From positions 56,643 to 120,642 of the IMG/VR virus record IMGVR_UViG_2917461297_000001: a stretch of 64,000 bases of DNA; one strand, written 5' to 3'. Positions within the stretch are counted from its first letter, which is position 1, and every line of letters begins with the position of its first letter. Of the stretch, positions 4,173 through 44,143 are shown one piece after another. Source of the DNA: a virus (lineage: Duplodnaviria; Heunggongvirae; Uroviricota; Caudoviricetes). The notes under the pieces were generated by a model. It was not told where the DNA came from, searched no databases, and was given only the letters and a program-made list of their open reading frames with translations. A program made the translations under genes and the position numbers.

Positions 4173-5486
4173 ATGACAAAAAGGAGGGAAAGCATGAATA
4201 ATAAATTCAAGGCTTTTAAAGAGGTTATTACACTTCTGAAAAATCAAGACACTAGTAAATCAATTAATAAAATTGCCAGTGAAATGGAAAGAAAGTATAG
4301 AGTCCCTAGTGGTATCACACATTCTTTCTTGAATCGTGAATTAGACGATAACTTTTTCGATACTACTGACATTCGACTAATTTCATTATTCATTTTAGAA
4401 AGTTTTAAAATATTGGGGCATGAAGATAGTATACAGGAGTATCTAACAGCCGGAGAAATTAATGAAGCAAAACAGTTTGATTTTCATGCATTCTTAGAGC
4501 AAGACAAAATTACTTTCCCGTATGATTTTCAACCGGTTGTTAAGGTAAACAATGTGTATAGCACAAAAATAAGTGTTAAGCAAATTGCAGAATTTGTTGA
4601 TTCTAAAGTAATCAATTATAACTTTGACATTCAACGAGAATCAAAATTGGAAAAACGAATTGGAAAAATTATTAGAAAGCCAATGTTAAACCAAAAGAAC
4701 ATTAGTGAGATGGAAAAGTTGCTTTTAGAAGATGGATTAAAAGAAAGTACACTTTTCTTTAATGCCGCTCCTATGACAAGTGTGAGTGGTGATGAATTAA
4801 TTTATGACCCAGAAAGTTATACATTAACGATTACTGAGGGAACTAGACTAGATGTTATCGATGGTTTCCACCGAGTTTTAGCAGCACAAAATGCTTATCG
4901 TGAGAACCCGACTATCAATTTTGAATTCAATGTGGTGTTTAGTAACTTTACTACAGCTGAAGCTATCAAATGGCAAGCGCAACACAGTAAGGCGACTCCG
5001 TGGTCAAAGAACAGAGTAGCTGAGTTACAACAAGAATCTGGAGGCGCCAAAGTTGTTAAGGCAATAAAAGATAAAGATGTTGTGTTTGAAGGTGTTATTA
5101 AAACTACAAGTAGCACAACAGGTGGTGGTTCAATAGCTTTTTCTGAACTAAGCAAGTATATTGATGAATTATTTACTGTAGAAACTAGGAGAGACCAAGT
5201 AAGTACAGCTCAAGAAGTTTCAGAAGTGATTTTGGCATACTTAGACTTGCGAGAAATCAATAAAACCTTTAATACTCGTGCCTACATTTACGCTTTCCTT
5301 AAAAACTATGTCGAAAGCGGTTTAACAATTAAAGAATTTTTAAATGAAACTCACAAGGTGGCTAATTATCTAAAAGATAACGAGGTCAATTTCAGAATCG
5401 AAGTGGCAAACCAAAGTGTTAAGAAAGTGCAAATTGAAGCAACCAACAATATAAAAACCTTGTTTGAGAAAGCGAGAGTGGAATAA
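4173..5486 (+). CDS. DGQHR-motif protein (DndB-like / ParB-like nuclease superfamily)
   Basis: VIDGFHRVLAAQNA resembles the invariant DGQHR motif of the DndB/DGQHR family; 437 aa; its stop overlaps the next start (TAATG). Confidence 0.4.
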   Translation: MTKRRESMNNKFKAFKEVITLLKNQDTSKSINKIASEMERKYRVPSGITHSFLNRELDDNFFDTTDIRLISLFILESFKILGHEDSIQEYLTAGEINEAKQFDFHAFLEQDKITFPYDFQPVVKVNNVYSTKISVKQIAEFVDSKVINYNFDIQRESKLEKRIGKIIRKPMLNQKNISEMEKLLLEDGLKESTLFFNAAPMTSVSGDELIYDPESYTLTITEGTRLDVIDGFHRVLAAQNAYRENPTINFEFNVVFSNFTTAEAIKWQAQHSKATPWSKNRVAELQQESGGAKVVKAIKDKDVVFEGVIKTTSSTTGGGSIAFSELSKYIDELFTVETRRDQVSTAQEVSEVILAYLDLREINKTFNTRAYIYAFLKNYVESGLTIKEFLNETHKVANYLKDNEVNFRIEVANQSVKKVQIEATNNIKTLFEKARVE

Positions 5487-6499
5487 TGTTTTACAATAGT
5501 TTGTATAAGAGACAGTTTTTACAATCTTTAGAGCGTGAAAACGAAATAAGAGTGTATACTGCATTATTCAATAACAGCAGTAAAGTAGAGCAACAATTCG
5601 ATACTGATTTGTATAACTTTACAACTTCTGAAATAGAAATTTTGCTTTATAATATCTATTCCTCCAGTAAAAACACTTTACTAACTTATTTAACATTTGC
5701 TAAAAAGTATACTGATTACGCTATCGAGAGAGGAGATAGATTATCTAACATTAATTTGTTCAGAATGTTTACGTACGATAAGATTGATAAGTTTGTATAT
5801 AAACATAAACAAAAGTTTTTCACGTACGAGAAATTCCTACTACATGTTAGTAGCTTCTATAATGCTAGCGATAGAGCATTAGTTTCAGCAATCTTTCATG
5901 GCATTTCTGGGGCGGCTTATAGCGAACTAATCAATCTAACCATCGATGATATTAAAGAAGCTAGAAGTAATCCAACACATGTCGCTGGTGATGAACAATA
6001 TTATAAATTGAGGCTTTTAAACGATAAGAAAGGTGAAACAATTGAGCGCTATATTGAAGTGCCAGAGGTTTTGTTAGATGATATGGAAAAATCATATAGA
6101 GCTACAATCTATTACACCAAGAACGGTGACCCTAGTTCTAGAAGACCTGCAAAAGACATAATAGGCGGAAATCATATTTTTAGAAATGTCGAGTTTACTG
6201 ACACCACAACAGAACAAATTGATAAGCAAGTAGTATATAGACGAATGAAAGTCCTACAAGACTTAACTAACAATTACATTTCAAGTGTTACTAACGTAAT
6301 TGATTCTGGTATATTGCACTATATGTATTTACTATCAGAAAACGGAAAATTAGATTACATGAAAATAGAAAAAGTGATGAGAAGATATAGTAAACACATT
6401 TATGAAAAGTCACTACCATATACAATCGCTAGGTTTATCAAACAATATCAAGATGCTTTACAAGATTTATATGGAGTAGTAATAGTGAATAAGCCCTAA
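5486..6499 (+). CDS. recombinase-like protein, catalytically degenerate
   Basis: N-terminal integrase SAM-like pattern. The box I-like stretch GISGAAYSELINLTIDDI lacks the catalytic Arg, and no HxxR/Y pair is evident. Confidence 0.3.
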   Translation: MFYNSLYKRQFLQSLERENEIRVYTALFNNSSKVEQQFDTDLYNFTTSEIEILLYNIYSSSKNTLLTYLTFAKKYTDYAIERGDRLSNINLFRMFTYDKIDKFVYKHKQKFFTYEKFLLHVSSFYNASDRALVSAIFHGISGAAYSELINLTIDDIKEARSNPTHVAGDEQYYKLRLLNDKKGETIERYIEVPEVLLDDMEKSYRATIYYTKNGDPSSRRPAKDIIGGNHIFRNVEFTDTTTEQIDKQVVYRRMKVLQDLTNNYISSVTNVIDSGILHYMYLLSENGKLDYMKIEKVMRRYSKHIYEKSLPYTIARFIKQYQDALQDLYGVVIVNKP

Positions 6500-8085: not shown

Positions 8086-9036
8086 ATGGCTGAAAACAAA
8101 CGATATGAGAACAAAGTAACGGTAGTAGGAGAACTTAAAGAGTTAGAGGTACGAGAAATCACAACTAAAAAAGGTGTCCCAATGAAAATGGCAAACATCT
8201 CTGTACAAGTTGGTAAAGGTGAAGTACATAAAGCTAGAATGTCAGCTATGGAATACTATGAAAACGATGGTAAAAAGGAAGAGAACAAGGCTTATAAAGC
8301 TATTGAGACTATGCAAGATGAATATGTAAGTCTTAAAGACATTGCTGAGAAAAACTTACAAGGCGTTAGTCCAACTGTTATTGGTATTAATGGACATATT
8401 GAAAACAATGTGTATCAAGGACGTGACGGTAAATTAGTGGAGATGCCAACAATTCAAGCTAATTTTGTATCTCGACGTAATGTTGAAAAAGAAGATTATG
8501 GTGCTGAATTTATCTTCCAAACATTTGCTTTATCAAGTGCCACTCGAGTTACTAATAAAGAGGGGGACGAAACAGATAGCGTACGTTTCAAAGTAGCAGC
8601 TATTCATCGTGGCATGGCTCAACCGTTTGAAGTTCAAGCGACTGATGAATATGGTGTTGCTGAATGGTTAGAAGATAATCTTGAAAAAGGTATGACATTA
8701 ACTATTAATGGTCAATGGATTAATAAATATATTCTAAAACAAGTAGAACGTCCTAATCCAGCCGGCATCGGTAAACCAATCGTAGATACTAAACGTGAAA
8801 TTGAAAACCGTATTTTAGTTGAAGGTGTCACTCCGGTAGAAGATGAAGAATCAGTTGATTACATTACTACTGATGAAATGAAAGACGCTATGAAGAAATA
8901 TGAAGACTATAAAGTAGAGCGTCAATCAGCTTCACAAGAGAAGAAAAAGCAAGAGGTTAAAAAAGGAGTTAATATTGTTAAGAAATCTACGGCGGCAAGT
9001 ACTCCGGCTTTAACAGATGAAGATTTACCTTTTTAA
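8086..9036 (+). CDS. putative ssDNA-binding protein (SSB-like acidic tail)
   Basis: C-terminus ...ALTDEDLPF matches the SSB C-terminal tip (D-D-D-[IL]-P-F); sits at the head of the replication module; the rest of the protein is not a canonical SSB. Confidence 0.4.
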   Translation: MAENKRYENKVTVVGELKELEVREITTKKGVPMKMANISVQVGKGEVHKARMSAMEYYENDGKKEENKAYKAIETMQDEYVSLKDIAEKNLQGVSPTVIGINGHIENNVYQGRDGKLVEMPTIQANFVSRRNVEKEDYGAEFIFQTFALSSATRVTNKEGDETDSVRFKVAAIHRGMAQPFEVQATDEYGVAEWLEDNLEKGMTLTINGQWINKYILKQVERPNPAGIGKPIVDTKREIENRILVEGVTPVEDEESVDYITTDEMKDAMKKYEDYKVERQSASQEKKKQEVKKGVNIVKKSTAASTPALTDEDLPF

Positions 9037-9127
9037 TATCAAGAAATAAATTAATTGATGTTATGTGTAGATTGTAGCAAGGTGAGATAATTCTTGCCTT
9101 GCTGATATTAAAGGAGACAGAGGAGAA

Positions 9128-10228
9128 TTGGTATCAGAAATACAATTAAAGATAAATAAGTTGAAAGAGAAGCGTATTCAAGACGACTTAGAAGAATATG
9201 GAAAAAAATTCTTTGTATTAAAGAAAAAGGGAAATGGTTACTTTGCTAGTGATAAACAAAAAGAATTTATCATCAACACTTATTCAAAGAAGTATGAAAA
9301 CGCAAAATCAATTAGCAAAAGATTTGGTATAAGCTCTAGTTGGATTAATGCAAGATTAAGACAATGGGGAATATCTATTAAATCCTCAAAAGAGTTACTT
9401 CAATTACATAGTTATAATGAGGATTATTTTGAGATGATTGATTCAGAAGAGAAGGCTTATTGGTTAGGAATGTTATATGCCGATGGAACACTTACTTATA
9501 ACAAGATAGGTAAAGATGGTAAGGTCAAGAATAGATTAAAACTAGCTTTACAAGGTGCCGATAGAGAACATTTAAAATTATTTGCTAAACACATAGAGCT
9601 TGAACATTATAATCCCAAGACATATTACACGACAGTGGGCGAGAAAGAATATTCTTATTGTGAATTGGTGGTTTCTTCTACAAAAATGATAGAAGATTTG
9701 ATTGATAAAGGAATGATTCCTACAAACAATAATATTGGCAAAGAAAAGAAGGAATTGATACGTTTTCCTGACGAAACTCAAGTCCCTAAACATTTGTTAC
9801 ATCATTTTGTAAGAGGATATTTTGATGGTGACGGTTCGTTGACTAGGATTAGAAACAAAGGAAAATATGTGGATTCTCAACATTACACTTTCAAATTTGT
9901 TTCTAACAAGACTTTTTGTGAACAACTTAAAGAGTTTTTTAAACTTGATGAGTTGAACGGATACAATAGGAATGTTTCTAACATATACAAAGCAAAAAAT
10001 AAGAAATATATACATACTTTTGAATGCGGTGGTAATCATAGAGTGTTTCATATATATAATTTGATGTACCAAAACGCAACAATTTATTTACATAGAAAGA
10101 ATAAGAGAATTAAAGAGTTTTTAAGTTATTATCAAGAAAATAATTTAATTGACAAATTAGATACATATCGACCAAAGCATTGGAGTAAACGAATTAATAA
10201 CAAAACAAATAAAATAATTTTTAACTAG
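9128..10228 (+). CDS. LAGLIDADG homing endonuclease (free-standing)
   Basis: Two LAGLIDADG motifs, YWLGMLYADGTL and FVRGYFDGDGSL; N-terminal HTH-like region. Confidence 0.75.
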   Translation: MVSEIQLKINKLKEKRIQDDLEEYGKKFFVLKKKGNGYFASDKQKEFIINTYSKKYENAKSISKRFGISSSWINARLRQWGISIKSSKELLQLHSYNEDYFEMIDSEEKAYWLGMLYADGTLTYNKIGKDGKVKNRLKLALQGADREHLKLFAKHIELEHYNPKTYYTTVGEKEYSYCELVVSSTKMIEDLIDKGMIPTNNNIGKEKKELIRFPDETQVPKHLLHHFVRGYFDGDGSLTRIRNKGKYVDSQHYTFKFVSNKTFCEQLKEFFKLDELNGYNRNVSNIYKAKNKKYIHTFECGGNHRVFHIYNLMYQNATIYLHRKNKRIKEFLSYYQENNLIDKLDTYRPKHWSKRINNKTNKIIFN

Positions 10229-10241
10229 GAGAGATTTATAC

Positions 10242-11216
10242 ATGTCATTAGATATTTTTAACCCAACTATTTCAGTAATTCCGAAAGGTTTAGAAGGTAA
10301 GTCGTTTTTATTATACGGTCAAAACTCATCAGGTAAAACTAAACAAGCAGCCGCAATGAGTAAACCATTCTATTTAGGTTTCGAGAAAGGGTTGAATGCT
10401 ATTTCTGGTATTCCTTTTCACTATGTAACTAAGTGGTCAGATTTCAAAAAGATTAATAAGCAATTAACTGGCAAAGATGTTAAAAAAGCTCGTGAAGCAT
10501 ACAGTACAATCATTTTTGATACAGTTGACATTGCCGCTATTTATTGCCAAAGATATGTGGCTAATCAACACGGTGCGGCTGATGTGGCAAGCGGCAACGG
10601 AGGTTATGGATTGTGGCAACAATACAAGGAAGAATTTTGGGGAGAAATTGATAAATTAACTTCAGTTGGATACACGGTCGTATTTATCGGACATGAAAAA
10701 GTGGACGAAAATGGCAAAATCATTCCAGCAGGTGATATTCGTTCAATGGGTACTGTACGTGATTTAGCTGATATTGTTGTGTACTTAAAAACAAACGGAG
10801 TAGATGACGAGGGTAATGTTATCTTGTCTACTGGATATGTACGTGAGACTGACGAATACTTTGCACGCTCCCGCTTTGACTTAATGCCTAATATGATTGA
10901 ACCATTTACAGCTGAAAACCTTGAAGAAGCGGTACGTATTGGTGTAGAACGTGCCGAACAAGCAGGTGGTAAAGCAGTTACATATGAGGAATTTGTTGAA
11001 AATACAAGTTCTGAAGAATTAAACTTCGGTGAGTTACAAGAAAAATTAATTGGTTTAGGAAAAGCGTATATGGAAGCTGGGCGTTTAGAAGAATTTACTG
11101 AGTTAATGGACGATACTTTTGGTGAGGGTACTAGGGTACATGAACTGAAAGAAAAACAAACAGAAGCAATGGCTGTTATTGTTGATGACTTAACAGACAA
11201 ATTAAAGTCTGAATAA
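10242..11216 (+). CDS. RecA-like / Sak4-like AAA ATPase
   Basis: Walker A GQNSSGKT near the N-terminus; a Walker B-like hhhhD stretch (IIFDTVD); same position as SPbeta yorG. Confidence 0.45.
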   Translation: MSLDIFNPTISVIPKGLEGKSFLLYGQNSSGKTKQAAAMSKPFYLGFEKGLNAISGIPFHYVTKWSDFKKINKQLTGKDVKKAREAYSTIIFDTVDIAAIYCQRYVANQHGAADVASGNGGYGLWQQYKEEFWGEIDKLTSVGYTVVFIGHEKVDENGKIIPAGDIRSMGTVRDLADIVVYLKTNGVDDEGNVILSTGYVRETDEYFARSRFDLMPNMIEPFTAENLEEAVRIGVERAEQAGGKAVTYEEFVENTSSEELNFGELQEKLIGLGKAYMEAGRLEEFTELMDDTFGEGTRVHELKEKQTEAMAVIVDDLTDKLKSE

Positions 11217-11286
11217 ACATTCTTAAAGTCTCAGTGGTATCGCTACGCTGCTGAGACTTACTCCTAAATGTAAGTTGGTGAACTAA

Positions 11287-11781
11287 ATGGCTAACGTTAA
11301 ATGCCCATACTGTGAACAACAAGATAGCAAAGAAAACATGATTAAAGTTGGTAGAAGATACTGGCATGAAACTTGTAGAGAACAATTTATTAACGAGCAG
11401 AACGAAGAAGAAAAACGCAAATTACAAGACAAAGAAGAATATAAAGAGTTAATTGAGTATGTGTGTGCTTTATTTAATACCGATAAACCATCTGGATTTG
11501 TATTAAAACAAATTCAAACATATCATAATAAACCTTACGGATACAGATACAAAGCAATTAAGATGGCTCTAGAATATTTCTTTGATATAAAAAACAATTC
11601 TACTAGAAACTCTAAAGGTATCGGTATTCTTCCGTATATTTATGATGAAGCGGCAGACTTTTATCGTAATCTAGTGAGAATACAAAACACAGAAGTAAAA
11701 AACAAAGAAGAAGTTAAAGAAGTTGTCGTTAAAAAAGTGAAAAAGAATAAAAAGAGAAAGTTTGATTTGAATGAATTGTAG
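11287..11781 (+). CDS. zinc-ribbon containing hypothetical protein
   Basis: N-terminal CPYC...HETC; lysine-rich C-terminus. Confidence 0.35.
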   Translation: MANVKCPYCEQQDSKENMIKVGRRYWHETCREQFINEQNEEEKRKLQDKEEYKELIEYVCALFNTDKPSGFVLKQIQTYHNKPYGYRYKAIKMALEYFFDIKNNSTRNSKGIGILPYIYDEAADFYRNLVRIQNTEVKNKEEVKEVVVKKVKKNKKRKFDLNEL

Positions 11782-11794
11782 AGGAAGTGGATAG

Positions 11795-13354
11795 ATGGAC
11801 TTGTTTCCTAACTCAAACGTATGTAGCGCTTTAGCTTGCTTGATGAAAAAGCCTACGTTGATTGAGGAGAGCAAAATAAAATTAGAAAAAAATGATTTTA
11901 TAGCTAAGGGTGAGAGTAAGTTTTACTATATTATTTACTCAGCAATAGCTAATTTGTTCATGGACGGTATGAGAGAGGAAGTTACTCCCGCAGCAGTTGA
12001 TGAATTTTTAAGTCATTATGACGAACCATATAAGATATTCACACAAAACGACGGTGTTGAATTTTTATATAATGTTATTTCAACATTAGGAAGCCCAGAT
12101 TCTTATCATCGACATGCAACACGAATTCGTAAGTTTACTATTTTAAGAGAAGCAGTAAATTTAGGGTTTGGTCTTGAAGATGTTTATGAAACGTCAGATG
12201 ATGATGAAGAGAACACAGCGTTACAAAATAGATTTGAACATTTAAGTGTCGATGACATTATAGAGCATTATGAAAGAATTGTGAATGAGTTTGCTAGTAA
12301 GTTTAAAATCGGTTATGAGACTGAAGGAGGAGTTGCTGGTGAAAATGGTTTACAGTTGTTCAATAGCTTTAAAGAAGAGCCACAATACGGGGTTTCAACT
12401 TGTGGGAAACTGCAAAACAAGATATTCAGAGGACAATTATTAGGTGCTTCAATGTTACGCTCAGCTTCCACCAATACCTTTAAATCACGTACATCTTTAG
12501 GAGAAGCCACTGATTTAGCAATCACAAAATGGTACAACTGGAAAACAGGTGAGTGGGAAAGTAAAGGCACATCTGAGAAAGTGTTATACATAACTACCGA
12601 GATGGAGCAAGAGGAATTAGAGCCGACAATTTGGGCTTATATTAGTGGTGTACCAGAAGAACGTATTAAGGATTATAACTTATCACCAGAAGAAGTGAGA
12701 GTTATTGAAGAATCAATTCAAGAGTTAAACGACTGTAAATCATTTTACATCGAGTACATTCCACAATTTGAGCCAACAACAATCAACGCAATCATTAAGA
12801 AGTACGTAACTCAATATAATGTTGAATATGTATTTTTTGATTACATTCACTTAAATTTCCAAGTAATGATGGAAATGGCGAGCAAAACTCGTGGCATGAC
12901 TACCCGTGAAGATATGATTTTAGGTATCTTTGCAGCCGGATTAGCCGAAATTGCAAAAGAACATAACGTGCACCTTTCAACTTCTACACAGGTTAATGGC
13001 GAAGCGGTGCATAGCAAGAAATTAGACCAAAACGTATTACGTGGTGCCAAGAATATGGCAGACAAATTTACAAAAGGTATTGTTATGACTAGACCGACGA
13101 GCGAAGATGACAAGATTATAGAAGCAATTATGGGTAAGTTAAAAGGTGTAAACAAGAAGCCTAATATGATTTGGCACATCTATAAGAATCGTCACTCAAA
13201 ATATAAAGGTAAACTATATCTTTACGTTGACTTCGATACTATGCGAATGGAAGATTTGTTTATGACTGATGATAGAGATGAGTTTATGGAAGTTACACCA
13301 CTTGAATTATTGGTTCAAGAGGAAGAAAAAGAAGAAGAAACACTACCATTTTAA
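11795..13354 (+). CDS. DnaB-like replicative helicase family protein
   Basis: VLYITTEMEQEELEPTIWAY resembles the DnaB SLEMS region; has an N-terminal DnaB-like helical domain; the Walker A lysine is not evident; C-terminus EEETLPF. Confidence 0.5.
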   Translation: MDLFPNSNVCSALACLMKKPTLIEESKIKLEKNDFIAKGESKFYYIIYSAIANLFMDGMREEVTPAAVDEFLSHYDEPYKIFTQNDGVEFLYNVISTLGSPDSYHRHATRIRKFTILREAVNLGFGLEDVYETSDDDEENTALQNRFEHLSVDDIIEHYERIVNEFASKFKIGYETEGGVAGENGLQLFNSFKEEPQYGVSTCGKLQNKIFRGQLLGASMLRSASTNTFKSRTSLGEATDLAITKWYNWKTGEWESKGTSEKVLYITTEMEQEELEPTIWAYISGVPEERIKDYNLSPEEVRVIEESIQELNDCKSFYIEYIPQFEPTTINAIIKKYVTQYNVEYVFFDYIHLNFQVMMEMASKTRGMTTREDMILGIFAAGLAEIAKEHNVHLSTSTQVNGEAVHSKKLDQNVLRGAKNMADKFTKGIVMTRPTSEDDKIIEAIMGKLKGVNKKPNMIWHIYKNRHSKYKGKLYLYVDFDTMRMEDLFMTDDRDEFMEVTPLELLVQEEEKEEETLPF

Positions 13355-13368
13355 AGTGGTGACATAAA

Positions 13369-14484
13369 ATGTTCGATAAAGATAAATTCAAAGAAACATT
13401 AAGCATAGAAGAAATTCAGAAAGTACTTACATATTATGGGGCTAGTCACCACGTTAATACGAAAGGTGAAATAGTTTCCGAGACAATTTGCCACAATAGA
13501 GCTGGTGGTTCACATAAGCTATATTATTATCCAGACACACATACTTTTTATTGTTACACACATTGTGGTGCATTTGATATATACGATTTAATTATTAAAG
13601 TCAATAAAACTCGAGGAAGTAAAATTGACTTTAATCAAGCGATAAAAATTTTAGGAGAGATATTAGGAAGAAAGATTGACTTTAGTAGAAAAGTTAAAGG
13701 TGTTCAACTTGAGGTCAAACTTATCGATGATTGGGCTTGGCTGAATAGACTCAAGCCTAAAACTCAATTTATTCCTGATTTAAACATAATTAACAAAAGT
13801 ATAATGAAGTATTTTGACGAAATGTATCCGAGCGCTTGGGTAGAAGAGGGCATAAGCCTTGAAACTATGGAAAAATACGGGATTAGGTTTTACCCTGAAA
13901 TGAACCAAACTATTATCCCTCACCTCGATGGTGAGGGAAATCTGATTGGCATACGTAGTCGAAACTGGCGTAAAGACTTAATAAAGAAAGCTAAGTATAT
14001 TCCCACCTACATTGGTGAGAGAGGTTTCAATCACCCGTTAGGTTATGCATTGTACGGTTTGTTTCAAAACAAGGAGGCTATTAAAAAGAAAAAGAAAGTC
14101 ATGATTGTTGAGGGAGAAAAATCATGCTTATTTTCTGACACTTTTTATGGTGATAACAATTTTGTGGTAGCAATTTGTGGCTCAAATATGAGTAGGTACC
14201 AAGCTAATTTGTTACTAGATTTACAAGTTGAGGAAGTAATCATAGCAATGGATAAAGAATACATGATTGTTGATTCTCCTGACTATGATGAATATATGAA
14301 GAAGATAAGAAAGATAGCGAAATTATTCGCTCCTTACTGTACAACGTATCATTTAACTGATACTAAAAATAGATTGTGGCTTAAAGAGAGTCCATTAGAT
14401 TTAAATAAAGAAGAATTAGAGTTAATGATGAAAGAAGATAAACATTTAATAACACTGAAAGACTTAGAGGAGACACAAACATGA
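13369..14484 (+). CDS. DNA primase (CHC2 zinc finger + TOPRIM)
   Basis: CHNRAGGSHKLYYYPDTHTFYCYTHCG zinc finger; TOPRIM residues VMIVEGEKS and IAMDKE. Confidence 0.7.
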   Translation: MFDKDKFKETLSIEEIQKVLTYYGASHHVNTKGEIVSETICHNRAGGSHKLYYYPDTHTFYCYTHCGAFDIYDLIIKVNKTRGSKIDFNQAIKILGEILGRKIDFSRKVKGVQLEVKLIDDWAWLNRLKPKTQFIPDLNIINKSIMKYFDEMYPSAWVEEGISLETMEKYGIRFYPEMNQTIIPHLDGEGNLIGIRSRNWRKDLIKKAKYIPTYIGERGFNHPLGYALYGLFQNKEAIKKKKKVMIVEGEKSCLFSDTFYGDNNFVVAICGSNMSRYQANLLLDLQVEEVIIAMDKEYMIVDSPDYDEYMKKIRKIAKLFAPYCTTYHLTDTKNRLWLKESPLDLNKEELELMMKEDKHLITLKDLEETQT

Positions 14485-16235
14485 AAGTAAAATTAAAAAA
14501 TGATGTTAGTGTTGACAATAATATCGAACAGGTGTTAATGAACAGGGGGATTAAGAGTAACTTAATAAAGAGTTATCTTAGCCCCCAAAGTCATTTAATG
14601 CCAGATTACAGCAAACTAAAAAATATTGAAGCGGCTATCGAGCTATTGAATAAACACGTTAAAAATAAAAGTAAAATTGCATTAACTGTAGACGTTGACA
14701 TGGACGGCTTAACAAGTGCTGGGATTATTTATAAATATTTAGTGAATTACATTGAATATGATAAAGAGTTAATTAAATTAATCATGCCTAAAGGAAAAAT
14801 ACATGGAATTCTCGTTGACAGAGTTTTAAATGAGATTGAGTCTGGTGACTTATTAATTGTAACAGACGCTGGTTCAAGCGACTTTAAAGAACATAGACAG
14901 TTATACGAGCAAGGAATTAATTGTGTTGTGGTTGACCACCATCTAGCATCAGAAGAAGAAACGCCAGCCATAATCGTAAACAATCAGTTATCACCTGAGT
15001 TTGAAAACAAAGGGCTAACTGGCTCAGCTATGACGTATCTTTTTTGCACTGCATATAGCGATAAATATGAATTAAAAGAACCAAAAGAATTACTAGATTT
15101 AGCAGCTATTGGTTTGGTTGCTGATAGAGCTGACTTTTCTGTTGACTTAGGCGCTTACTATATAATGAGAAGTGGGCTAAAGAAACAAAATATTCATAGC
15201 AAATTATTGAAAAAGGTTATTGAAAAGAACGGAAATATGGAAGAAGATGCTGATTTGAACGCTACTGATATTAGTTTTAACGTTGCACCAATTTTTAACT
15301 CAGTGTTTCGTATGGGCAAGCCTGAGGAAGTAGAGCAGGTTATTCATGGAATGTGTGAGTTTGATTACGAGATATATAACTCAAGAAAGAAGATAAATCA
15401 AAGCATTATTGAAGAAGCATATCTTAGAGCCATGTCAGTAAAACGTCGTCAAAAGAAACAAGAAGACGAAGTTATGGAAAAAATTAAGGAACGTATTAAT
15501 GAGAAAGGTTCTGACAAGTTCAAAATCTTAATTGTTAATGCTAATGGTATTATTGAAGATAATGGATTAACCGGCTTAGTAGCTATGAAATTAGTGAGAG
15601 AGTACAATAAACCAGTGTTATTGGTTAAACAAAAAGGAGAATTATTTAAAGGTTCGGCACGTAATTTATCCAACTCGCCAATAAAAGATTTAAATAAGTT
15701 TTTAACTGACACAGGGAAGTTTATTTGTAGAGGTCATGCAAATGCGTTTGGCGTCGAGTTTGAACTGAATGATGCATTAGAAATACAGACAATTATTGAG
15801 TCTGAGTTAATTGATGTTGATTTTGATGATGTAGAATACGAGGTTGATTTTATTTGGTCAAACTTTGTAGATATGAATGTTATTCTTGATTTAGCAGAGC
15901 AGAAAGATATGTGGTGCAATGGCATTGACGAGCCGCTTATCTATCTAAAGAATATTTACATGAAGAAAAGTGATTTCAATTTTATTGGTAAGACTGGTAG
16001 TACTCTAAAATTGCAAGTACAAGGCGTAGATTGTATCAAGTTTAGAATTTCGGAAGATGAAAAGAGTGAAATCGCACTTGCTGATGACACTGTGTTTATC
16101 GATATGGTATGCACAGCTAGTGTAAACAGCTATAAAGGCAGAAATACACCACAGTTGATGATTGAAGATTTTACAATTAAGTCGGCACAAGAACAAGTAG
16201 GTAGTGCATTATGCTTAGATGATTTACCATTTTAA
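14481..16235 (+). CDS. RecJ-like DHH-family ssDNA exonuclease
   Basis: DHH motifs VDVDMDG and VVVDHHL; DHHA1 GH in CRGHANAFG; C-terminus LDDLPF; synteny with SPbeta yorK. Confidence 0.7.
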   Translation: MKVKLKNDVSVDNNIEQVLMNRGIKSNLIKSYLSPQSHLMPDYSKLKNIEAAIELLNKHVKNKSKIALTVDVDMDGLTSAGIIYKYLVNYIEYDKELIKLIMPKGKIHGILVDRVLNEIESGDLLIVTDAGSSDFKEHRQLYEQGINCVVVDHHLASEEETPAIIVNNQLSPEFENKGLTGSAMTYLFCTAYSDKYELKEPKELLDLAAIGLVADRADFSVDLGAYYIMRSGLKKQNIHSKLLKKVIEKNGNMEEDADLNATDISFNVAPIFNSVFRMGKPEEVEQVIHGMCEFDYEIYNSRKKINQSIIEEAYLRAMSVKRRQKKQEDEVMEKIKERINEKGSDKFKILIVNANGIIEDNGLTGLVAMKLVREYNKPVLLVKQKGELFKGSARNLSNSPIKDLNKFLTDTGKFICRGHANAFGVEFELNDALEIQTIIESELIDVDFDDVEYEVDFIWSNFVDMNVILDLAEQKDMWCNGIDEPLIYLKNIYMKKSDFNFIGKTGSTLKLQVQGVDCIKFRISEDEKSEIALADDTVFIDMVCTASVNSYKGRNTPQLMIEDFTIKSAQEQVGSALCLDDLPF

Positions 16236-22767: not shown

Positions 22768-25074
22768 ATGAAACAATTAGTATTACTTAGAGGCGCGCCA
22801 GCTAGTGGTAAGTCAACCTTTTTAAAAGAAAATGGCTTAGAACCGTTCGCATTATCACCTGATGTGTTAAGGTATTCGGCACCAGTAGTCAACGAAACAG
22901 GTCAACTGGTAATGTCTCAAGAAAACGATAATAAAGTATGGAAGTTGTTGTTCGAGATTCTTGAAGAGCGTATGAAAAATGGTGATTTTATTATTGTCGA
23001 TGCTACTCATTCAACAGCTAAACTAATTAACAAATATAAAAAATTAAGAGAAAGTTATGGTTACCGTACATATGTGGTTGATTTTGATATACCCTTAGAA
23101 GAATGTTTAAAGAGAAATAGCCGAAGAAAAGAGTATGAATTTGTTCCAGAAGAAGCTATTGAGAATATTCATGAACGATTAAAGTACGAGAATATTCCTA
23201 GTTTTGCTAAAGTGTTAAAACCAGAAGAATTGTTGGAAGAAATTGAATGGAAAGTGCAAGATTTTAATCAATTTAATAAAGTCAAAGTTATTGGTGATGT
23301 GCATGGTTGCTATACTGCATTAAATGAATTAGTTACATATGAAGAAATTGCTGATAATCAAGACACAGCTTATATTTTTGTAGGAGATTTGTTCGATAGA
23401 GGGTTAGAAAACGCAAAAGTATTTGAATTCATTGAATCTATTTATAACTTGTCTAACGTGTTTCTGATTGAAGGGAATCATGAAAGACATTTGAGAACAT
23501 ATATAAAAGTATATGACGAGTTAATTGATGAGCTTAATTATAGCTTAGGTGATACTGAAAAAGATAAGTACAATAAAATGTATAAATACATTAAGTCTCG
23601 TGGATTCATTCAAACGACACTAAAAGAATTTTTAGATAGTGGAATCACAAAAGACCGAGTAAAGCCAATCCTAAGAAAATTGCTACAATGCTTGTATTTT
23701 GAGTTAAATGGTTCTCAATATATTGTGACTCATGGTGGTATTTTACCGAACATGATTCCAAATTTAAACTTAGTTTCTACTAGCCAATTAATTAATGGAA
23801 TTGGTGGATATGAGTTTGAAATCGATGATGAATGGAGTGATGAAAACTTTTACATGATTCAAAACCGTATTATTCAAATACATGGTCACAGAAATCTTTA
23901 TCGTATTCCATTGGACGTAGATGCAAGCTCAATCAACTTAGAAGGAAGAGTTGAGAAAGGTGGGCATTTGAGAGCCATTACTATTATTAAAGGGAACCCT
24001 TTTGTTAAGAACAAAATTGAGACTCATGAAATTAAGAATGATGTGTTTGACTCAAAATGGTTAATTTCAGACGATTACACAGAAAAGTTAGATGTTGATT
24101 TAACAGTAGAACAATTTATTGATGCAGCAAAAAGTGATAGAAAGTATATCAAAGTTCAAAATCAATATGATAATGTGTGCTCTGTTAATTTCACATCAAA
24201 GCTGTTTAATAGTGGGAAATGGAATCAGTTAGCAGTGCATGCAAGAGGGTTATTTGTTAAAGACGATGGAGCGGATAGTGTAGTTAAAGGTCGAGCGTAT
24301 AACAAATTCTTCAACATTGATGAAAACAAAAAAAATAAATTAGATAAACTTATTGACAGACTGGAGTTTCCTGTAAAAGCATATCGAAAAGAAAATGGAT
24401 ATTTAGGAATCCTGTTTTACGATAGTGATATTGACGAACTTGTGTATGCTTCAAAGAGTAAAACTCACAAAGCAAAGTATGACAATCAATATGCGTTGTG
24501 GTTCAAGGATATAGTTGAGAATGCTTTAAGTGTTGATGAATTGGAGAGGCTAAAAAATGAGCTTAAAGAGTACAACGCATCAGCTGTGTTTGAAGTAATT
24601 GATGTTAAGAATGACCCACACATCGCTAAATATGATAGAAGTAAAATTATACTCTTAGATGTTGTAAAGAACCAACTACAATTTGAAAGAGTGAGTGAAG
24701 ATTACAGTCGAGAACTAGCTGCTATGATTGGACTAGAGCACAAGGAGTTAGAGTTTACTTTCAATAACTGGCAAGATTTCTATCAATGGTATAAGGTGCA
24801 AATTAAGAGCTTGGACGCAAAACATGAAGGTTGGGTACTTGAAGACAGCAAGGGCTATATGCTCAAGATAAAATCTAAATGGTACAAAGACTGGAAGTAT
24901 ATTAGAAAGTTCATTGGTAAGATTAACACTGGTTATTCACCAAAACAATTTATTTTACAAAGTAACCATGAAGTAAGAGATTTTTATTACTGGTATAAGA
25001 AAAATGGAAAGAAAACAGATAGAGATAGCGACTTAATTAGATTGAGAGATGAGTTCTACGAACAAGAGGGTTAA
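22768..25074 (+). CDS. Pnkp-like RNA repair enzyme (5'-kinase / 2',3'-phosphatase / ligase-type nucleotidyltransferase fusion)
   Basis: N-terminal P-loop LLRGAPASGKSTF. Central calcineurin-like motifs GDVHGCY, GDLFDRG, GNHE, THGG and GHRN. C-terminal nucleotidyltransferase motif I KxDG (FVKDDGAD). Same architecture as bacterial Pnkp. Confidence 0.6.
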   Translation: MKQLVLLRGAPASGKSTFLKENGLEPFALSPDVLRYSAPVVNETGQLVMSQENDNKVWKLLFEILEERMKNGDFIIVDATHSTAKLINKYKKLRESYGYRTYVVDFDIPLEECLKRNSRRKEYEFVPEEAIENIHERLKYENIPSFAKVLKPEELLEEIEWKVQDFNQFNKVKVIGDVHGCYTALNELVTYEEIADNQDTAYIFVGDLFDRGLENAKVFEFIESIYNLSNVFLIEGNHERHLRTYIKVYDELIDELNYSLGDTEKDKYNKMYKYIKSRGFIQTTLKEFLDSGITKDRVKPILRKLLQCLYFELNGSQYIVTHGGILPNMIPNLNLVSTSQLINGIGGYEFEIDDEWSDENFYMIQNRIIQIHGHRNLYRIPLDVDASSINLEGRVEKGGHLRAITIIKGNPFVKNKIETHEIKNDVFDSKWLISDDYTEKLDVDLTVEQFIDAAKSDRKYIKVQNQYDNVCSVNFTSKLFNSGKWNQLAVHARGLFVKDDGADSVVKGRAYNKFFNIDENKKNKLDKLIDRLEFPVKAYRKENGYLGILFYDSDIDELVYASKSKTHKAKYDNQYALWFKDIVENALSVDELERLKNELKEYNASAVFEVIDVKNDPHIAKYDRSKIILLDVVKNQLQFERVSEDYSRELAAMIGLEHKELEFTFNNWQDFYQWYKVQIKSLDAKHEGWVLEDSKGYMLKIKSKWYKDWKYIRKFIGKINTGYSPKQFILQSNHEVRDFYYWYKKNGKKTDRDSDLIRLRDEFYEQEG

Positions 25075-39858: not shown

Positions 39859-41262
39859 ATGGCAGAAAGAAACGAATATGTACTACACCATAACCATTCA
39901 TATTACTCTAACTTGCGTTTAACAGATGCGATTACTTCACCAAGACAATTAATCGAGACAGCCAAACAATATGGTTATAAAGGTATGAGTATTACTGAAC
40001 ATGAATCACTTTCTAGCGCTGTCGATATGATTAAAACAGTGAAAGAGATGAAAGCTAGTGGAGAATTACGAGAAGATTTTAGAATGCTGTTGGGCAATGA
40101 AATCTATCTCGTTGATAGCTTGGAAGAGGTTAGAGACAACTATGAAAGCGGAAAAACAAAATTCCCACATTTTTGTTTAATTGCAAAGAATAGAAAAGGT
40201 TTTGAAGCATTAAGTAAATTAAGCTCACAAGCGTGGAAGAATTCGTTTTTTAGTAGTTCTATTATGGAACGTGTTCCAACTGAAAAAGCATATTTAAGAG
40301 AAGTAGCGCAGTCAGATGAGTATAAAGGAACATTGATGGCAAGCAGCGCATGTCTTGGAAGCCCAATCTGCTTATATTTACAAGAAAAAATGCTTATGGA
40401 ACAAACTTTTGATAAAGAAAAGATTCAAGAAGCACACAACAAAGCTAAAAATGAAGTTCAATGGTGTGTTGATACATTTGGTAAAGACGATTTTTACATT
40501 GAATTACAGCCAGCGGATACACCCGTGCAACGTTATGTTAATGAAAACTTATTAGAGTTTGTTAAAGAATTTGATTTAAAATATATAGTTGCTTGTGACA
40601 CACATTACGCCAACAAGTCTCATGCTACAATTCATGCTGCATTTCTCAACTCTAAAAATGAAGAGCGTGAGGTAGAAGAGTTCTATAAGTATACATATAT
40701 GCATAGTGTAGACGATATTTATAAACAAATGGCTTACTATTTAGGTGAAGACGTGGTCAAACAAGCGCTAGAAACTACAACGGAATTATACGATAAATCA
40801 GAGGATTATGACTTAGCCCATTCACCAATTATTCCACGAGCCGAGATTCCTGAATTTGAGTTAAAGCACTTGTTTCAGCCCGCTTATGACAAATATAAGA
40901 GTCTTGAAAGATTAGCGTATTCTGATAAGAAAGACGAAAGATATATGCTTCATTTGTTAGAGGAAGGTTATCTGAGGGAGCTACACAAAGAAGATATAAC
41001 TAAAGAAGAGTTTCATCAAATATTAGCAAGGCTAGATGTTGAAATGGAAGAGATTTTAGGTGTAGGAGATAAGATTAATCAAACAGTAAGCTCATACTAT
41101 ATTACTGTGCGTGATATAATCAACACAATTTGGGAAGAAGATACTTGTAACGGATATTCTGGTTCATTAGTTGGCAGTGGACGTGGGTCATCTGGTGGTT
41201 TCTTATCATTGTTCTTACTTGGAATTACTCAAGTTAATCCATTAGAACATAAAAATATGCCA
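39859..41262 (+). CDS. dnaE: DNA polymerase III alpha (DnaE-family), exon 1 (PHP domain and start of catalytic core)
   Basis: PHP signature YVLHHNHSYYSNLRLTDA. Homology runs to ...NPLEHKNMP; the annotated ORF then reads into non-homologous sequence and stops at 41349. Confidence 0.55.
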
Positions 41263-41656
41263 CATTTCAGACATTTGCATAAAAGTCGTCAAGATTTCCC
41301 TAAATTATTGGGGATTAAATGTGAACGCAAGACAAAGCGGTGTGCTTAGAATTATTCTAAGTGCTAACAGTATCAGTTGAATAAGACTACCATTCAAGCC
41401 TTACAAGGAGATAATGGAAATAAATTAAAAGACGAAGCAGCTGACTAAGAGAGCCTAAGGTCTATTAATAAAAATAGATAGCTGGTAATACTGTGCGAAG
41501 CCTTTAGTTCAAAGGAACGTGCAACGACTATCCTGTAAAGGAGTACGCCTGATTTTGTCACAGGTGGAAGCGCATTTACATACATATGTATGGTGATATA
41601 GTCTATTCCGACTGTTAATTCAGTGTTAAAGTATTAGGAAACTAACGGTGTATAAG
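41263..41656 (+). ncRNA. putative ORF-less group I intron interrupting dnaE
   Basis: About 394 nt with no ORF, inserted inside the conserved NPERxSMP-DIDIDF region; the 3' end is ...UAUAAG (terminal G); exon 2 resumes in frame with DVDVDIE. Confidence 0.4.
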
Positions 41657-44143
41657 GACGTAGATGTAGACATAGAAAGTAAACGAAGACAAGAAGTTAT
41701 TCGAGCATTAAAGAATAAATATGGTGAAGATAAGGTTCTAAATGTTGCTACTTTTACAACAGCTGGTACTAAATCTTGTATTAAAATAGCAGCAAGAGGA
41801 TTGGGAATCGAGGATACAGAAGCCCAATATATTGCTAGTTTGATTCCAACTGAGCGTGGACAACAGTATACACTCAGTGACTGTTTATATGGCAATGAAG
41901 AAAAAGGTAGAAAGAAACAACAACAATTTATTAATGAGATGGAAAAGTATCCAGAATTATTGAAAACAGCTTTAGGTTTAGAAAGTATTGTCGTTGCTAA
42001 ATCACAACATGCTGGTGGAGTAATCATCTTTAATGATGAGATTCATAAACACAGTGCAATGATGAAAGCGGCAAAAGGAGAAGCAAGTATTACTCAATGG
42101 TCGCTTAAAGATAGTGAGTACATGGGTTTAGTAAAGTTTGACTTATTATCGATTGATAACTTGGATAGGATTAGAAGCACCTTAGAATTGATGGAAAAAG
42201 ACGGTGTGATTGAATCAAAAGGAAGTCTAAAAGATACATTTAACGAGTATCTACACCCACGTGTACTTAATCATGAGGATAAACGTTACTATGAATTAGC
42301 TTCAAGAGGGATAGTAAACGATACATTCCAATTCAACACTAATATTGGTATTGAAACATTAAAGAGAATCAAGCCTGAAAACTTTGAACAATTCAGTGCT
42401 GCTAACTCATTAATGCGATTGCAGTCACAAGAAGGTAAAGAACCACCAATGGACATTTTCATTAAGCATAAAGAAAACATTCAAACTTGGTATGATGAAA
42501 TGAATGAGTGGGGATTAACAGATAGCGAAATTAAGGTTATGGAAGAGCATATTGGACATACGTTAGGAGTCTCTCCTGTGCAAGAACAAGCTATGGGACT
42601 ATCTGGAGACCCTAGAATCGCAAACTTCACTGTAGAAGAGCAGAATAAGCTCAGAAAGGCTATTGCAAAGCCAAAAGGAGCGGCTTTAGATGAAATAAAA
42701 TTGCTGTTTTATCGTAAAGGTAAGAAACAAGGAACAAGCAAAAACTTACTTGATTATGTATGGGAAACTCAATTCACACCAATGTTCAGTTATGCATTCA
42801 GTTCCATTCACTCTAATCTGTACTCAATCATCGGTATTCAGAATTTACATCTCAACTTGTTCTACAATCCAATCTATTGGCAAACAGCGTGTTTAAACGT
42901 TGACAGTGGCGCTACATCAGAAGATAGTGAATTTCTCGTAGACCATGAAAAGATTGCTAATGGTATTGGTAAGATTAAAGAGTTCGGTGTAGAAGTTAAG
43001 TTACCTGATGTTAACAAGTCTGATTTTGCGTTTACACCTGACGCTGAACACAATGTAATCATTTATGGACTTAAGCCTGTTAAGTCATTAAACTCAAAGA
43101 CAACGCACCATATTATCGAAAACAGACCATACAACTCTATCGAAGATGTACTTACTAAGCTATATGACAATAAACTGGTTACAAACACACAATTAATTAA
43201 TATGGTTAAGTCTGGCATGTTAGATAACATTTGCGAGTCACGTAAAGTAGCGATGATGGAAGTTATCAAACATATAACTAAAGTCCCTGAAACTTTGACT
43301 ATGCAAAATATTAAGACATTAATTGAGTCCGGTATTCTTGAAGGTAGACCAGAAGAAGAAATGGTGCTATTTAGAGAATCATTTAAGAACAAAGTGGTCA
43401 GAAAAGAGAAGCAAGGTAAATATAATGTTAAGATATTTAAAGTTGAAGATATGGAATTGTACGACAAATTGTTTGGTAACACAGGTGTCGTAAATGTTAC
43501 AAGTAACTATTATGAAGTTGATGAGAAGCAGTTCAAGAAAGTGTTCGATAAGAAGATTAAAGACCTTAAAGAATGGTTAAAGTCTGATGAGCAACTTAAG
43601 AAAGTACAGAGTTATGAATTGAATAAGCAGTGGATTAAATATGCTTTAGGTAGTTATTCAAAATGGGAAATGGAAACATTGTCGTTCTACTACCATGAAC
43701 ACGAGCTATCTCAAGTAGACAGTAAAATGTACAACCTAAGCAGATACAATGAATTGCCTGAAGAACCCCAAATAGTTGATACATTTATGTTTAAAGGAAG
43801 AGAGTTCCCTAAGTACAAAATCGATTCAATTGCCGGTGTTGTGATTTCTAAGAACGCTACAAAGAATATGGTCACAATTATTGCTACCGATGGTTCAGTA
43901 GTACCAATTAAGTATCAAGGAAATTTCTCTTACTACAACAAGGCAGTAAAAAGAAATGGCAAGATAGTTGAGGATAGTTGGTTTGGTAAAGGGAATTTAT
44001 TAATTGTTAGTGGATTTAGAAGAGGTAATCAATTTGTCGCTAAGAGATATGCTGATTCAAACACTTCCACGACAACAAAGCTAATTGATTATGTAGGAAA
44101 GAACGGCGAAGTCACTTTTAAACTAGAAAGAGAATATATTTAA
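41657..44143 (+). CDS. dnaE: DNA polymerase III alpha (DnaE-family), exon 2
   Basis: DVDVDIESKRRQEVIRALKNKYGEDKVLNVATFTTAGTKSCIKIAARGLGI aligns with DnaE PDIDIDF...RREEVI..KYG...TFGT..AK..IRDVGRVLG. Confidence 0.6.
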   Translation, partial: DVDVDIESKRRQEVIRALKNKYGEDKVLNVATFTTAGTKSCIKIAARGLGIEDTEAQYIASLIPTERGQQYTLSDCLYGNEEKGRKKQQQFINEMEKYPELLKTALGLESIVVAKSQHAGGVIIFNDEIHKHSAMMKAAKGEASITQWSLKDSEYMGLVKFDLLSIDNLDRIRSTLELMEKDGVIESKGSLKDTFNEYLHPRVLNHEDKRYYELASRGIVNDTFQFNTNIGIETLKRIKPENFEQFSAANSLMRLQSQEGKEPPMDIFIKHKENIQTWYDEMNEWGLTDSEIKVMEEHIGHTLGVSPVQEQAMGLSGDPRIANFTVEEQNKLRKAIAKPKGAALDEIKLLFYRKGKKQGTSKNLLDYVWETQFTPMFSYAFSSIHSNLYSIIGIQNLHLNLFYNPIYWQTACLNVDSGATSEDSEFLVDHEKIANGIGKIKEFGVEVKLPDVNKSDFAFTPDAEHNVIIYGLKPVKSLNSKTTHHIIENRPYNSIEDVLTKLYDNKLVTNTQLINMVKSGMLDNICESRKVAMMEVIKHITKVPETLTMQNIKTLIESGILEGRPEEEMVLFRESFKNKVVRKEKQGKYNVKIFKVEDMELYDKLFGNTGVVNVTSNYYEVDEKQFKKVFDKKIKDLKEWLKSDEQLKKVQSYELNKQWIKYALGSYSKWEMETLSFYYHEHELSQVDSKMYNLSRYNELPEEPQIVDTFMFKGREFPKYKIDSIAGVVISKNATKNMVTIIATDGSVVPIKYQGNFSYYNKAVKRNGKIVEDSWFGKGNLLIVSGFRRGNQFVAKRYADSNTSTTTKLIDYVGKNGEVTFKLEREYI

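Follow-up and report, generated by a model that had tools for sequence, protein, structure and literature searches.

The SSB (single-stranded DNA-binding protein), the replicative helicase and a RecJ-like nuclease encoded in the replication module of an SPbeta-like prophage all end in nearly the same short peptide, and these three tips probably dock on a shared partner that coevolves with the phage, where the proteins would compete or hand over to one another. The module lies in a stretch of 64,000 nt, positions 56,643–120,642 of the IMG/VR record IMGVR_UViG_2917461297_000001, which is called the window here; the genes of the module are on its plus strand. Judged by its proteins, the window belongs to an SPbeta-like prophage from the Staphylococcus delphini/pseudintermedius host group and represents its replication region, since its 316-aa SSB is 100% identical to an S. 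delphini protein and the SSB, helicase and nuclease are all 93–98% identical to S. pseudintermedius proteins. Megablast with the 8-kb region as query gave no match among 50,697 phage records, and relatives were reached only through proteins.

A codirectional gene block at 5.5–16.3 kb holds all three tailed proteins, and its order is that of yorF-yorG-yorH-yorI-yorJ-yorK(-yorL) in Bacillus phage SPBc2. A matching block is found in Staphylococcus phage SPbeta-like (KT429160) and in Mammaliicoccus phages. The module comprises the YorF SSB, Sak4 (YorG), YorH, the YorI helicase, the YorJ primase, the YorK RecJ-like nuclease and the YorL DnaE-type polymerase, and it is kept in many Firmicutes phages.

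An initial annotation of this DNA had reported three replication proteins ending in LPF, and the open reading frames (ORFs) and their ends were confirmed. The SSB (8086..9036) ends in PALTDEDLPF, the helicase (11795..13354) in EEEKEEETLPF and the RecJ-like nuclease (14481..16235) in SALCLDDLPF. Of the 204 ORFs that reach 50 aa or more, counting both strands, no others have a PF end. The window's own amino acid composition predicts 0.008 LPF ends in its 95 genes, and the probability of three or more is about 9e-8; some C-terminal tripeptide common to at least three genes, whichever it might be, arose in 280 of 20,000 shuffles. The consensus given at first, D-[LE]-x-L-P-F, fits the SSB literally but is loose and fits that protein only; the element common to the three tips is [DET]-L-P-F with acidic residues before it. 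The identities first assigned to the proteins (SSB-like, DnaB-like and RecJ-like DHH nuclease) were upheld by the domain and structure matches that follow.

The SSB was identified by structure prediction and a fold search. The local Pfam copy, which lacks the PF27337 (YorF) model, returned nothing for the 316-aa protein, nor did sequence searches of NCBIfam and the PDB. Precomputed annotation places PF27337 on an identical protein (P0121) and on homologs, the protein falls in phrog_2367, and a profile built in this analysis recovers SPBc2 YorF at 6e-101. An AlphaFold model based on an alignment of 122 remote homologs (predicted local distance difference test score, pLDDT, 94) shows an all-beta fold, after which come a long helix and a tail modeled at low confidence. 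Foldseek ranks the two-OB SSBs of Thermus and Deinococcus first (E ~1e-10) and Staphylococcus and Bacillus SsbA next. On this modeled structure the protein is an SSB of the tandem-OB kind whose tail is flexible, and single-stranded DNA (ssDNA) binding is predicted. The tail comprises residues 290–316 (8953..9033), with pLDDT of 67–69 as against more than 95 for the fold, and its tip, DEDLPF (9016-9033), matches the Gram-positive and staphylococcal SsbA tip DDDLPF. The SsbA of S. aureus ends in DISDDDLPF (PMC5531588), and the YorF tail carries I, L or V at position −8 as this host tail does.

The second tailed protein is a predicted YorK-like, RecJ-type DHH 5'-3' ssDNA exonuclease of 584 aa (phrog_2484, E 1e-161; TIGR00644). 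It has a DHH domain (PF01368) and a RecJ_OB domain (PF17768, residues 477–563), and the catalytic residues D71/D73/D75, D129 and D152-H153-H154 are invariant in 82 homologs. The model has a pLDDT of 92 and comes structurally closest to S. aureus RecJ (8y30) and Deinococcus radiodurans RecJ (5f56, with DNA and the SSB C-terminal peptide, SSB-Ct), the RecJ match having an E value of 4e-32. With the D. radiodurans enzyme the phage protein shares the DHH/DHHA1 core and OB domain with intact catalytic motifs. Cellular RecJ, however, has a further C-terminal region of ~150–200 residues that forms the SSB-Ct pocket; in D. radiodurans, the domain after the OB fold provides the pocket for EDDLPF with residues 553–629 (PMC4846377). 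In S. aureus RecJ (8y30), which has 757 aa, residues 32–561 align with residues 16–568 of the phage protein, and the D. radiodurans pocket residues fall outside the aligned part. The phage protein stops 16 residues past its OB domain, just where cellular RecJ starts its SSB-Ct-binding domain. Since the alignment ends before the pocket region, the phage enzyme lacks the receptor domain and carries instead a flexible 16-residue tail with the ligand sequence. This tail, of the SAQEQVGSALCLDDLPF type (16185..16232), ends in DDLPF; it is weakly acidic, and residues 570–584 have a pLDDT of 55–61. The S. pseudintermedius homologs of the nuclease (P0001 and P0002) are labeled single-stranded DNA-binding protein at NCBI, which looks like a misannotation.

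The third is a YorI-like replicative helicase of the DnaB family, 519 aa long (PF03796 DnaB_C, E 1e-10; phrog_19, E 2e-55) and 72% identical to the helicase of KT429160. Its acidic tail, LLVQEEEKEEETLPF (13307..13351), was read from the sequence and consists of a poly-Glu stretch followed by TLPF.

Conservation of the tails in homologs had been set beforehand as a test, and they are kept in the close clades of all three families. In the Staphylococcus/Mammaliicoccus clade, every one of 35 RecJ-like proteins ends in [LF]PF at identities of 39–94%, and all 21 helicases have F (19 proteins) or Y (2) as their last residue behind an acidic run, with Glu at −5 in 90%. The YorF proteins of the close clade end in LPF in 35 of 37 distinct tails. 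Among the RecJ-like tips of the close clade, L is found in 97%, P and F in 100% and D at −5 in 72%, while the 12 residues preceding the tip vary freely. For both YorF and the RecJ-like proteins, the last three positions are 92–100% conserved in close clades and the linker positions 20–40%. A hydrophobic residue at −8 is common to the two tails (at least 97% in the RecJ-like proteins), as in host SsbA. Because they are conserved and stand on flexible extensions, the tails behave as selected short linear motifs.

More widely, a terminal aromatic residue (F, W or Y) is found in 110 of 120 collected RecJ-like homologs, in 78 of 119 helicases and in 124 of 144 remote YorF representatives (108 F, 10 W and 6 Y), with 46 of the 144 YorF tips reading LPF or IPF. 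This feature is specific to the three families. When C-terminal aromatics were counted across 170 fetched phage loci, YorF had one within its last three residues in 99% of cases, the RecJ-like nuclease ended in one in 96% and the helicase in 44%. The frequencies were 0/51 for Sak4, 0/54 for YorH, 1/93 for the primase and 0/71 for the polymerase, and 7% for the other (background) ORFs. The initial annotation proposed that the helicase and nuclease had acquired the SSB tip. Exact convergence on LPF is indeed special to the Staphylococcus clade, but the aromatic C terminus is widespread in the YorK and YorI families, where it is probably old.

Support for a shared partner comes from comparing the three tips within each phage. 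Written in the order SSB, helicase and nuclease, the tips are DLPF, TLPF and DLPF in the window and DLPF, ALPF and ELPF in KT429160. In SEP9, whose host is S. epidermidis, they become ELDF, DIDF and GIDF; in VPE25, TPAF, VPVF and SLVF. A clade of ~150-kb IMG/VR phages has DEAW(D) on the SSB, no tip on the helicase and DDDW on the nuclease, and a large gut/rumen clade has GFNF, SSAF and KYYF. In loci L170 (DLAW, LDWF and DFWF) and L168 (DMNW, VFDW and KLIF), the place of RecJ between the primase and polymerase genes is taken by a nonhomologous PD-(D/E)XK nuclease, and this enzyme is also tipped with an aromatic residue. At least four independent tip types are shared across unrelated folds.

When tips were permuted among phages over 14 lineages, defined by helicases less than 60% identical, none of 20,000 permutations reached the observed within-phage similarity. 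A second test, in which each of eight major clades was represented once, gave p=0.001 for SSB and nuclease, 0.008 for SSB and helicase and 0.003 for helicase and nuclease. Because the tips match within a phage and differ between lineages, a shared partner that coevolves with the phage is favored over simple hijacking of the host SSB partners. The common hub suggested in the initial annotation gains real support from this pattern.

Several observations weigh against such a shared partner. Both permutation tests treat related lineages as independent, which makes the p-values optimistic. In the gut/rumen clade the tips FNF, SAF and YYF have only the terminal F in common, and the helicase of Mammaliicoccus phage phi36 ends in EYDF while the other two proteins end in LPF. 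SPBc2 itself has LPF on its SSB, a helicase without a tip and ELVF on its nuclease, and the helicase is likewise tipless in the clade with W-type tips. Kirov and LW81 carry the tip on the SSB alone (DDLPF), so the helicase and nuclease tips are dispensable in some lineages. The DnaE-type polymerase, which is one of the possible partners, is also present in the tip-poor LW81, and its presence therefore does not discriminate.

Two further observations were made in the loci with W-type tips. The PD-(D/E)XK nucleases of L168 (12792-13736) and L170 (12895-13890) end in RKLIF and IDFWF, respectively, and a RecD2-like helicase of L168 (17650-19902) ends in PQLIF, like the nuclease and unlike the SSB and DnaB-type tips (MNW and FDW), a hint that two classes of tip coexist in this phage. 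In the ~150-kb clade, a protein of 226–241 aa encoded between the post-SSB ATPase and the helicase ends in LVDDIFG (L021 6666-7391, L008 6693-7382 and L085 6726-7406), an end that we take to resemble the clamp-binding tail of T4-type polymerases.

How the tips might work is suggested by solved structures. In SSB-Ct complexes with RecJ, RNase HI, RecO and Pol III chi, the terminal Phe occupies a hydrophobic pocket of the partner and the acidic residues lie on an adjacent basic patch. By analogy, each phage tip would insert its terminal Phe into a pocket of the partner and place its acidic residues on a basic patch. The same kind of tip on the SSB, helicase and nuclease of one phage suggests that these proteins would compete or hand over at a single pocket. 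The likeliest candidate receptors are the module members that never bear a tip, among which Sak4 and the DnaE-type polymerase stand out; the Toprim primase is also a candidate. Phyletic patterns do not single one out, as no component covaries cleanly with the helicase and RecJ tips in the comparison with Kirov and LW81; in these two phages, the helicase and RecJ are tipless and the SSB with DDLPF and a Sak4-like ATPase are retained.

Sak4 of the window is a YorG-type, RecA-like annealase-ATPase of the AAA_24 group (10242..11216; PF13479, E 8e-39; phrog_124, Sak4-like). It is a candidate on account of the conserved ssb-sak4 gene pair and of work on HK620, where Sak4 binds SSB-coated ssDNA only when the six C-terminal residues of the SSB are present (PMC5928155). 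The ssb gene adjoins sak4 in HK620, and the same gene pair is found in the window. The HK620 system differs in having a conventional single-OB SSB, and no tip matching that of its SSB has been described on a helicase or nuclease of that phage. The lambda Red system follows the logic proposed here, as one annealase surface, the C-terminal domain of Redbeta, binds both the resecting lambda Exo and the SSB-Ct of the host (PMC6393309). By extension, a nuclease with an SSB-like tip could load an annealase onto the strand that it exposes. The lambda proteins are unrelated to those of the window, however, and Exo binds through a folded interface and not an SSB-like tail.

The polymerase is a candidate because of a precedent in Bacillus subtilis, where a DnaE–SSB interaction has been reported, and because of the analogy with phage T7. 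In T7, gp5 and the helicase are both touched by the gp2.5 tail, and PDB 6P7E shows gp5 with DTDF, a peptide from the gp4 tail (PMC4124056, PMC12339929). Loss of the terminal Phe of gp2.5 has suppressors in T7 gene 5. The initial annotation had drawn this comparison, and it is apt: in both cases the SSB and the replicative helicase have flexible acidic tails that end in an aromatic residue, and in T7 this residue is essential and the tails meet the same partner, gp5 (PMC4124056, PMC12339929). None of the proteins here is homologous to gp2.5, gp4 or gp5. The SSB of the window is a tandem-OB YorF, whose OB fold is of the bacterial type and not that of gp2.5; its DnaB-type helicase and its primase are separate proteins, unlike the helicase-primase gp4; and its polymerase is DnaE-type, whereas the T7 polymerase belongs to family A. 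The third tail, on the RecJ-like nuclease, also sets the module apart, whereas in T7 it is the tail of gp2.5 that stimulates the exonuclease, gp6.

The comparison with bacterial SSBs raises the main competing explanation. The phage tips are identical or nearly identical to the bacterial SSB-Ct (DDDIPF/DDDLPF), with a disordered linker after the OB folds and a terminal Phe (PMC5531588, PMC4846377). In the known bacterial cases, only the SSB is tipped and the enzymes hold the pockets; here, two enzymes are tipped as well. The phage SSB also has two OB folds per chain, as do the SSBs of Thermus and Deinococcus. Given this likeness, the LPF tips could serve to dock the phage SSB, helicase and nuclease on the host proteins that read the SsbA tip (PriA, RecQ, RecG, RecO, RecJ through its C-terminal domain, DnaE and Ung), thereby recruiting them to phage DNA or titrating them off the host SSB. 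The window's tip is that of Staphylococcus and Gram-positive SsbA (DISDDDLPF in S. aureus), the YorF and RecJ-like tails retain the hydrophobic residue at −8, and the LPF and IPF tips of the YorF family counted above also speak for it. However, SEP9 infects S. epidermidis and the SSB, helicase and RecJ of this phage nonetheless end in [LI]DF, and other clades have W tips or FNF, SAF and YYF, although the hosts of the metagenomic clades are not known. SEP9 and the W clades indicate that in tip type the helicase and nuclease go with the SSB of the same phage and not with the host consensus. Hijacking of the host SSB interactome, as raised in the initial annotation, is therefore less likely as a general explanation, given that the [LI]DF tips of SEP9 and those of the W clades differ from DDDLPF, the end of S. 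aureus SsbA. Within the LPF clade it is plausible, and there it is compatible with a shared phage partner. In the Staphylococcus clade the tip is the host SsbA tip, and cross talk with host SSB partners is thus also possible.

It seems improbable that the tails act on the proteins that bear them, the acidic tail folding back on its own DNA-binding surface as an autoinhibitory DNA mimic, as in gp2.5 and Escherichia coli SSB. Weak binding of an SSB tail to its own OB fold, with release of the tail by ssDNA, has been discussed (PMC5928155), and the helicase tail is strongly acidic. The invariant part, though, is the hydrophobic LPF tip and not the charge, the RecJ-like tail is weakly acidic, and AlphaFold left the SSB and RecJ-like tails undocked on their own folds (pLDDT 55–69). 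Self-regulation also does not predict that tips match within a phage across three unrelated folds.

Still harder to sustain is the view that a C-terminal LPF is a ClpXP tag through which a host protease would degrade the three proteins coordinately. In Streptococcus mutans UA159, the LPF of SsbA suffices for ClpXP degradation of green fluorescent protein, and LPY is tolerated (PMC5143411). The window tips satisfy this motif and some helicase homologs end in LPY, but LPF itself is not conserved across the family. Recognition depends on the strain and was not seen in E. coli or in other streptococci, and LDF and DPF are not recognized in S. mutans (PMC5143411), while the tips found in related phages include LDF, IDF, PLF, YDF and W. 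A degron would also leave the matching of non-LPF tips within phages unexplained.

That the tips bind a beta clamp, whether of the host or of the phage, is very improbable: clamp-binding peptides, such as the C-terminal tail of T4 polymerase, are short C-terminal hydrophobic motifs ending in F (consensus QL[SD]LF), some YorF-family tails end in LFG or GLF and a gene annotated as Pol III beta lies upstream in KT429160, but clamp binding was rejected since the tips lack the Q and L consensus positions and the W and acidic tips do not fit, the Pol III beta product of KT429160 has no Pfam match and no homolog in the fetched ORF set (window included), no clamp gene was detected in the window and, to our knowledge, SSB, helicase and RecJ are not clamp clients.

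The shared, coevolving partner can be extended, tentatively, to a private tip code. Interchangeable tips on the SSB, helicase and nuclease (whether RecJ-like or PD-(D/E)XK) may be read by one phage-encoded pocket, with tip and pocket drifting together through forms such as LPF, IDF and W, which would insulate the phage machinery from the host SSB interactome and from coinfecting phages. In the RecJ lineage the tip would have replaced the receptor domain, and the nuclease might load Sak4 or the polymerase on the fresh strand as an SSB does.

An acidic tail with a terminal aromatic residue is already known as a docking peptide, as is the sharing of one site by gp2.5 and gp4 in T7. In the literature searched, no earlier account turned up for YorF or YorK, for mimicry of SSB-Ct or for phage RecJ-like proteins with tails, although this does not prove that none exists elsewhere. 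The points for which no earlier description was found are the use of the principle in a phage replisome of the DnaB/DnaE type, the nuclease as a third tailed protein, the change of RecJ from receptor to ligand and the matching of tips within a genome. The family spans SPbeta-like prophages, Sextaecvirus, Andrewesvirinae and many gut and rumen phages, and it is large and poorly studied. If the tips do meet on a shared partner, they would offer a sequence handle for predicting binding partners in uncharacterized phage replisomes and would account for the recruitment of a RecJ-like nuclease that has no SSB-binding domain. They would also represent natural orthogonal peptide–pocket pairs, and for recombineering in Gram-positive bacteria, sets of SSB, annealase and nuclease would be best moved together.

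The remaining genes of the module bear no tip. The YorH-like protein of 164 aa (11287..11781; phrog_4680) is a conserved member, syntenic in loci L001-L004. The YorJ-like Toprim primase (13369..14484) matches phrog_47 (DNA primase) and NF006382 (E 4e-144). The DnaE-type, YorL-like Pol III alpha (39859..44143) is encoded in two ORFs, 39859-41349 and 41648-44143, which match SPBc2 YorL in phmmer searches at 9e-145 and 1e-218, and NCBIfam Pol III alpha models also match. The ORFs are divided by a noncoding gap of 298 bp (41350-41647). The gap could be an intron, and the annotation of SEP9 joins its polymerase from two pieces; a search with Rfam at the gathering threshold found no group I or group II intron in the gap, and no Rfam family was found anywhere in the window.

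Between the SSB and Sak4 genes, a free-standing homing endonuclease of the LAGLIDADG type (9128..10228; phrog_4645 endonuclease, weak LAGLIDADG_3 match) has been inserted, and it stands outside the tail system. No endonuclease is found at this position in KT429160 or phi36, and SEP9 has HNH endonuclease genes at comparable spots.

Upstream of the module, an MrpR-like protein (5486-6499) that bears the core-binding domain of the SPbeta repressor family is followed by two small proteins before the SSB gene. It lies directly 3' of a gene (4173-5486) for a 437-aa protein with a weak DndB-like match, and the DndB-like and MrpR-like genes are kept upstream of the module in Staphylococcus and Mammaliicoccus relatives. 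Farther downstream, a 768-aa protein (22768-25074) has PHROG matches to RNA ligase, polynucleotide kinase and phosphoesterase and, from these matches, looks like an RNA repair enzyme of the fused Pnkp/RNA-ligase type. Almost every long ORF of the window is on the plus strand, the GC content is ~32% and the GC skew is positive in all 2-kb bins.

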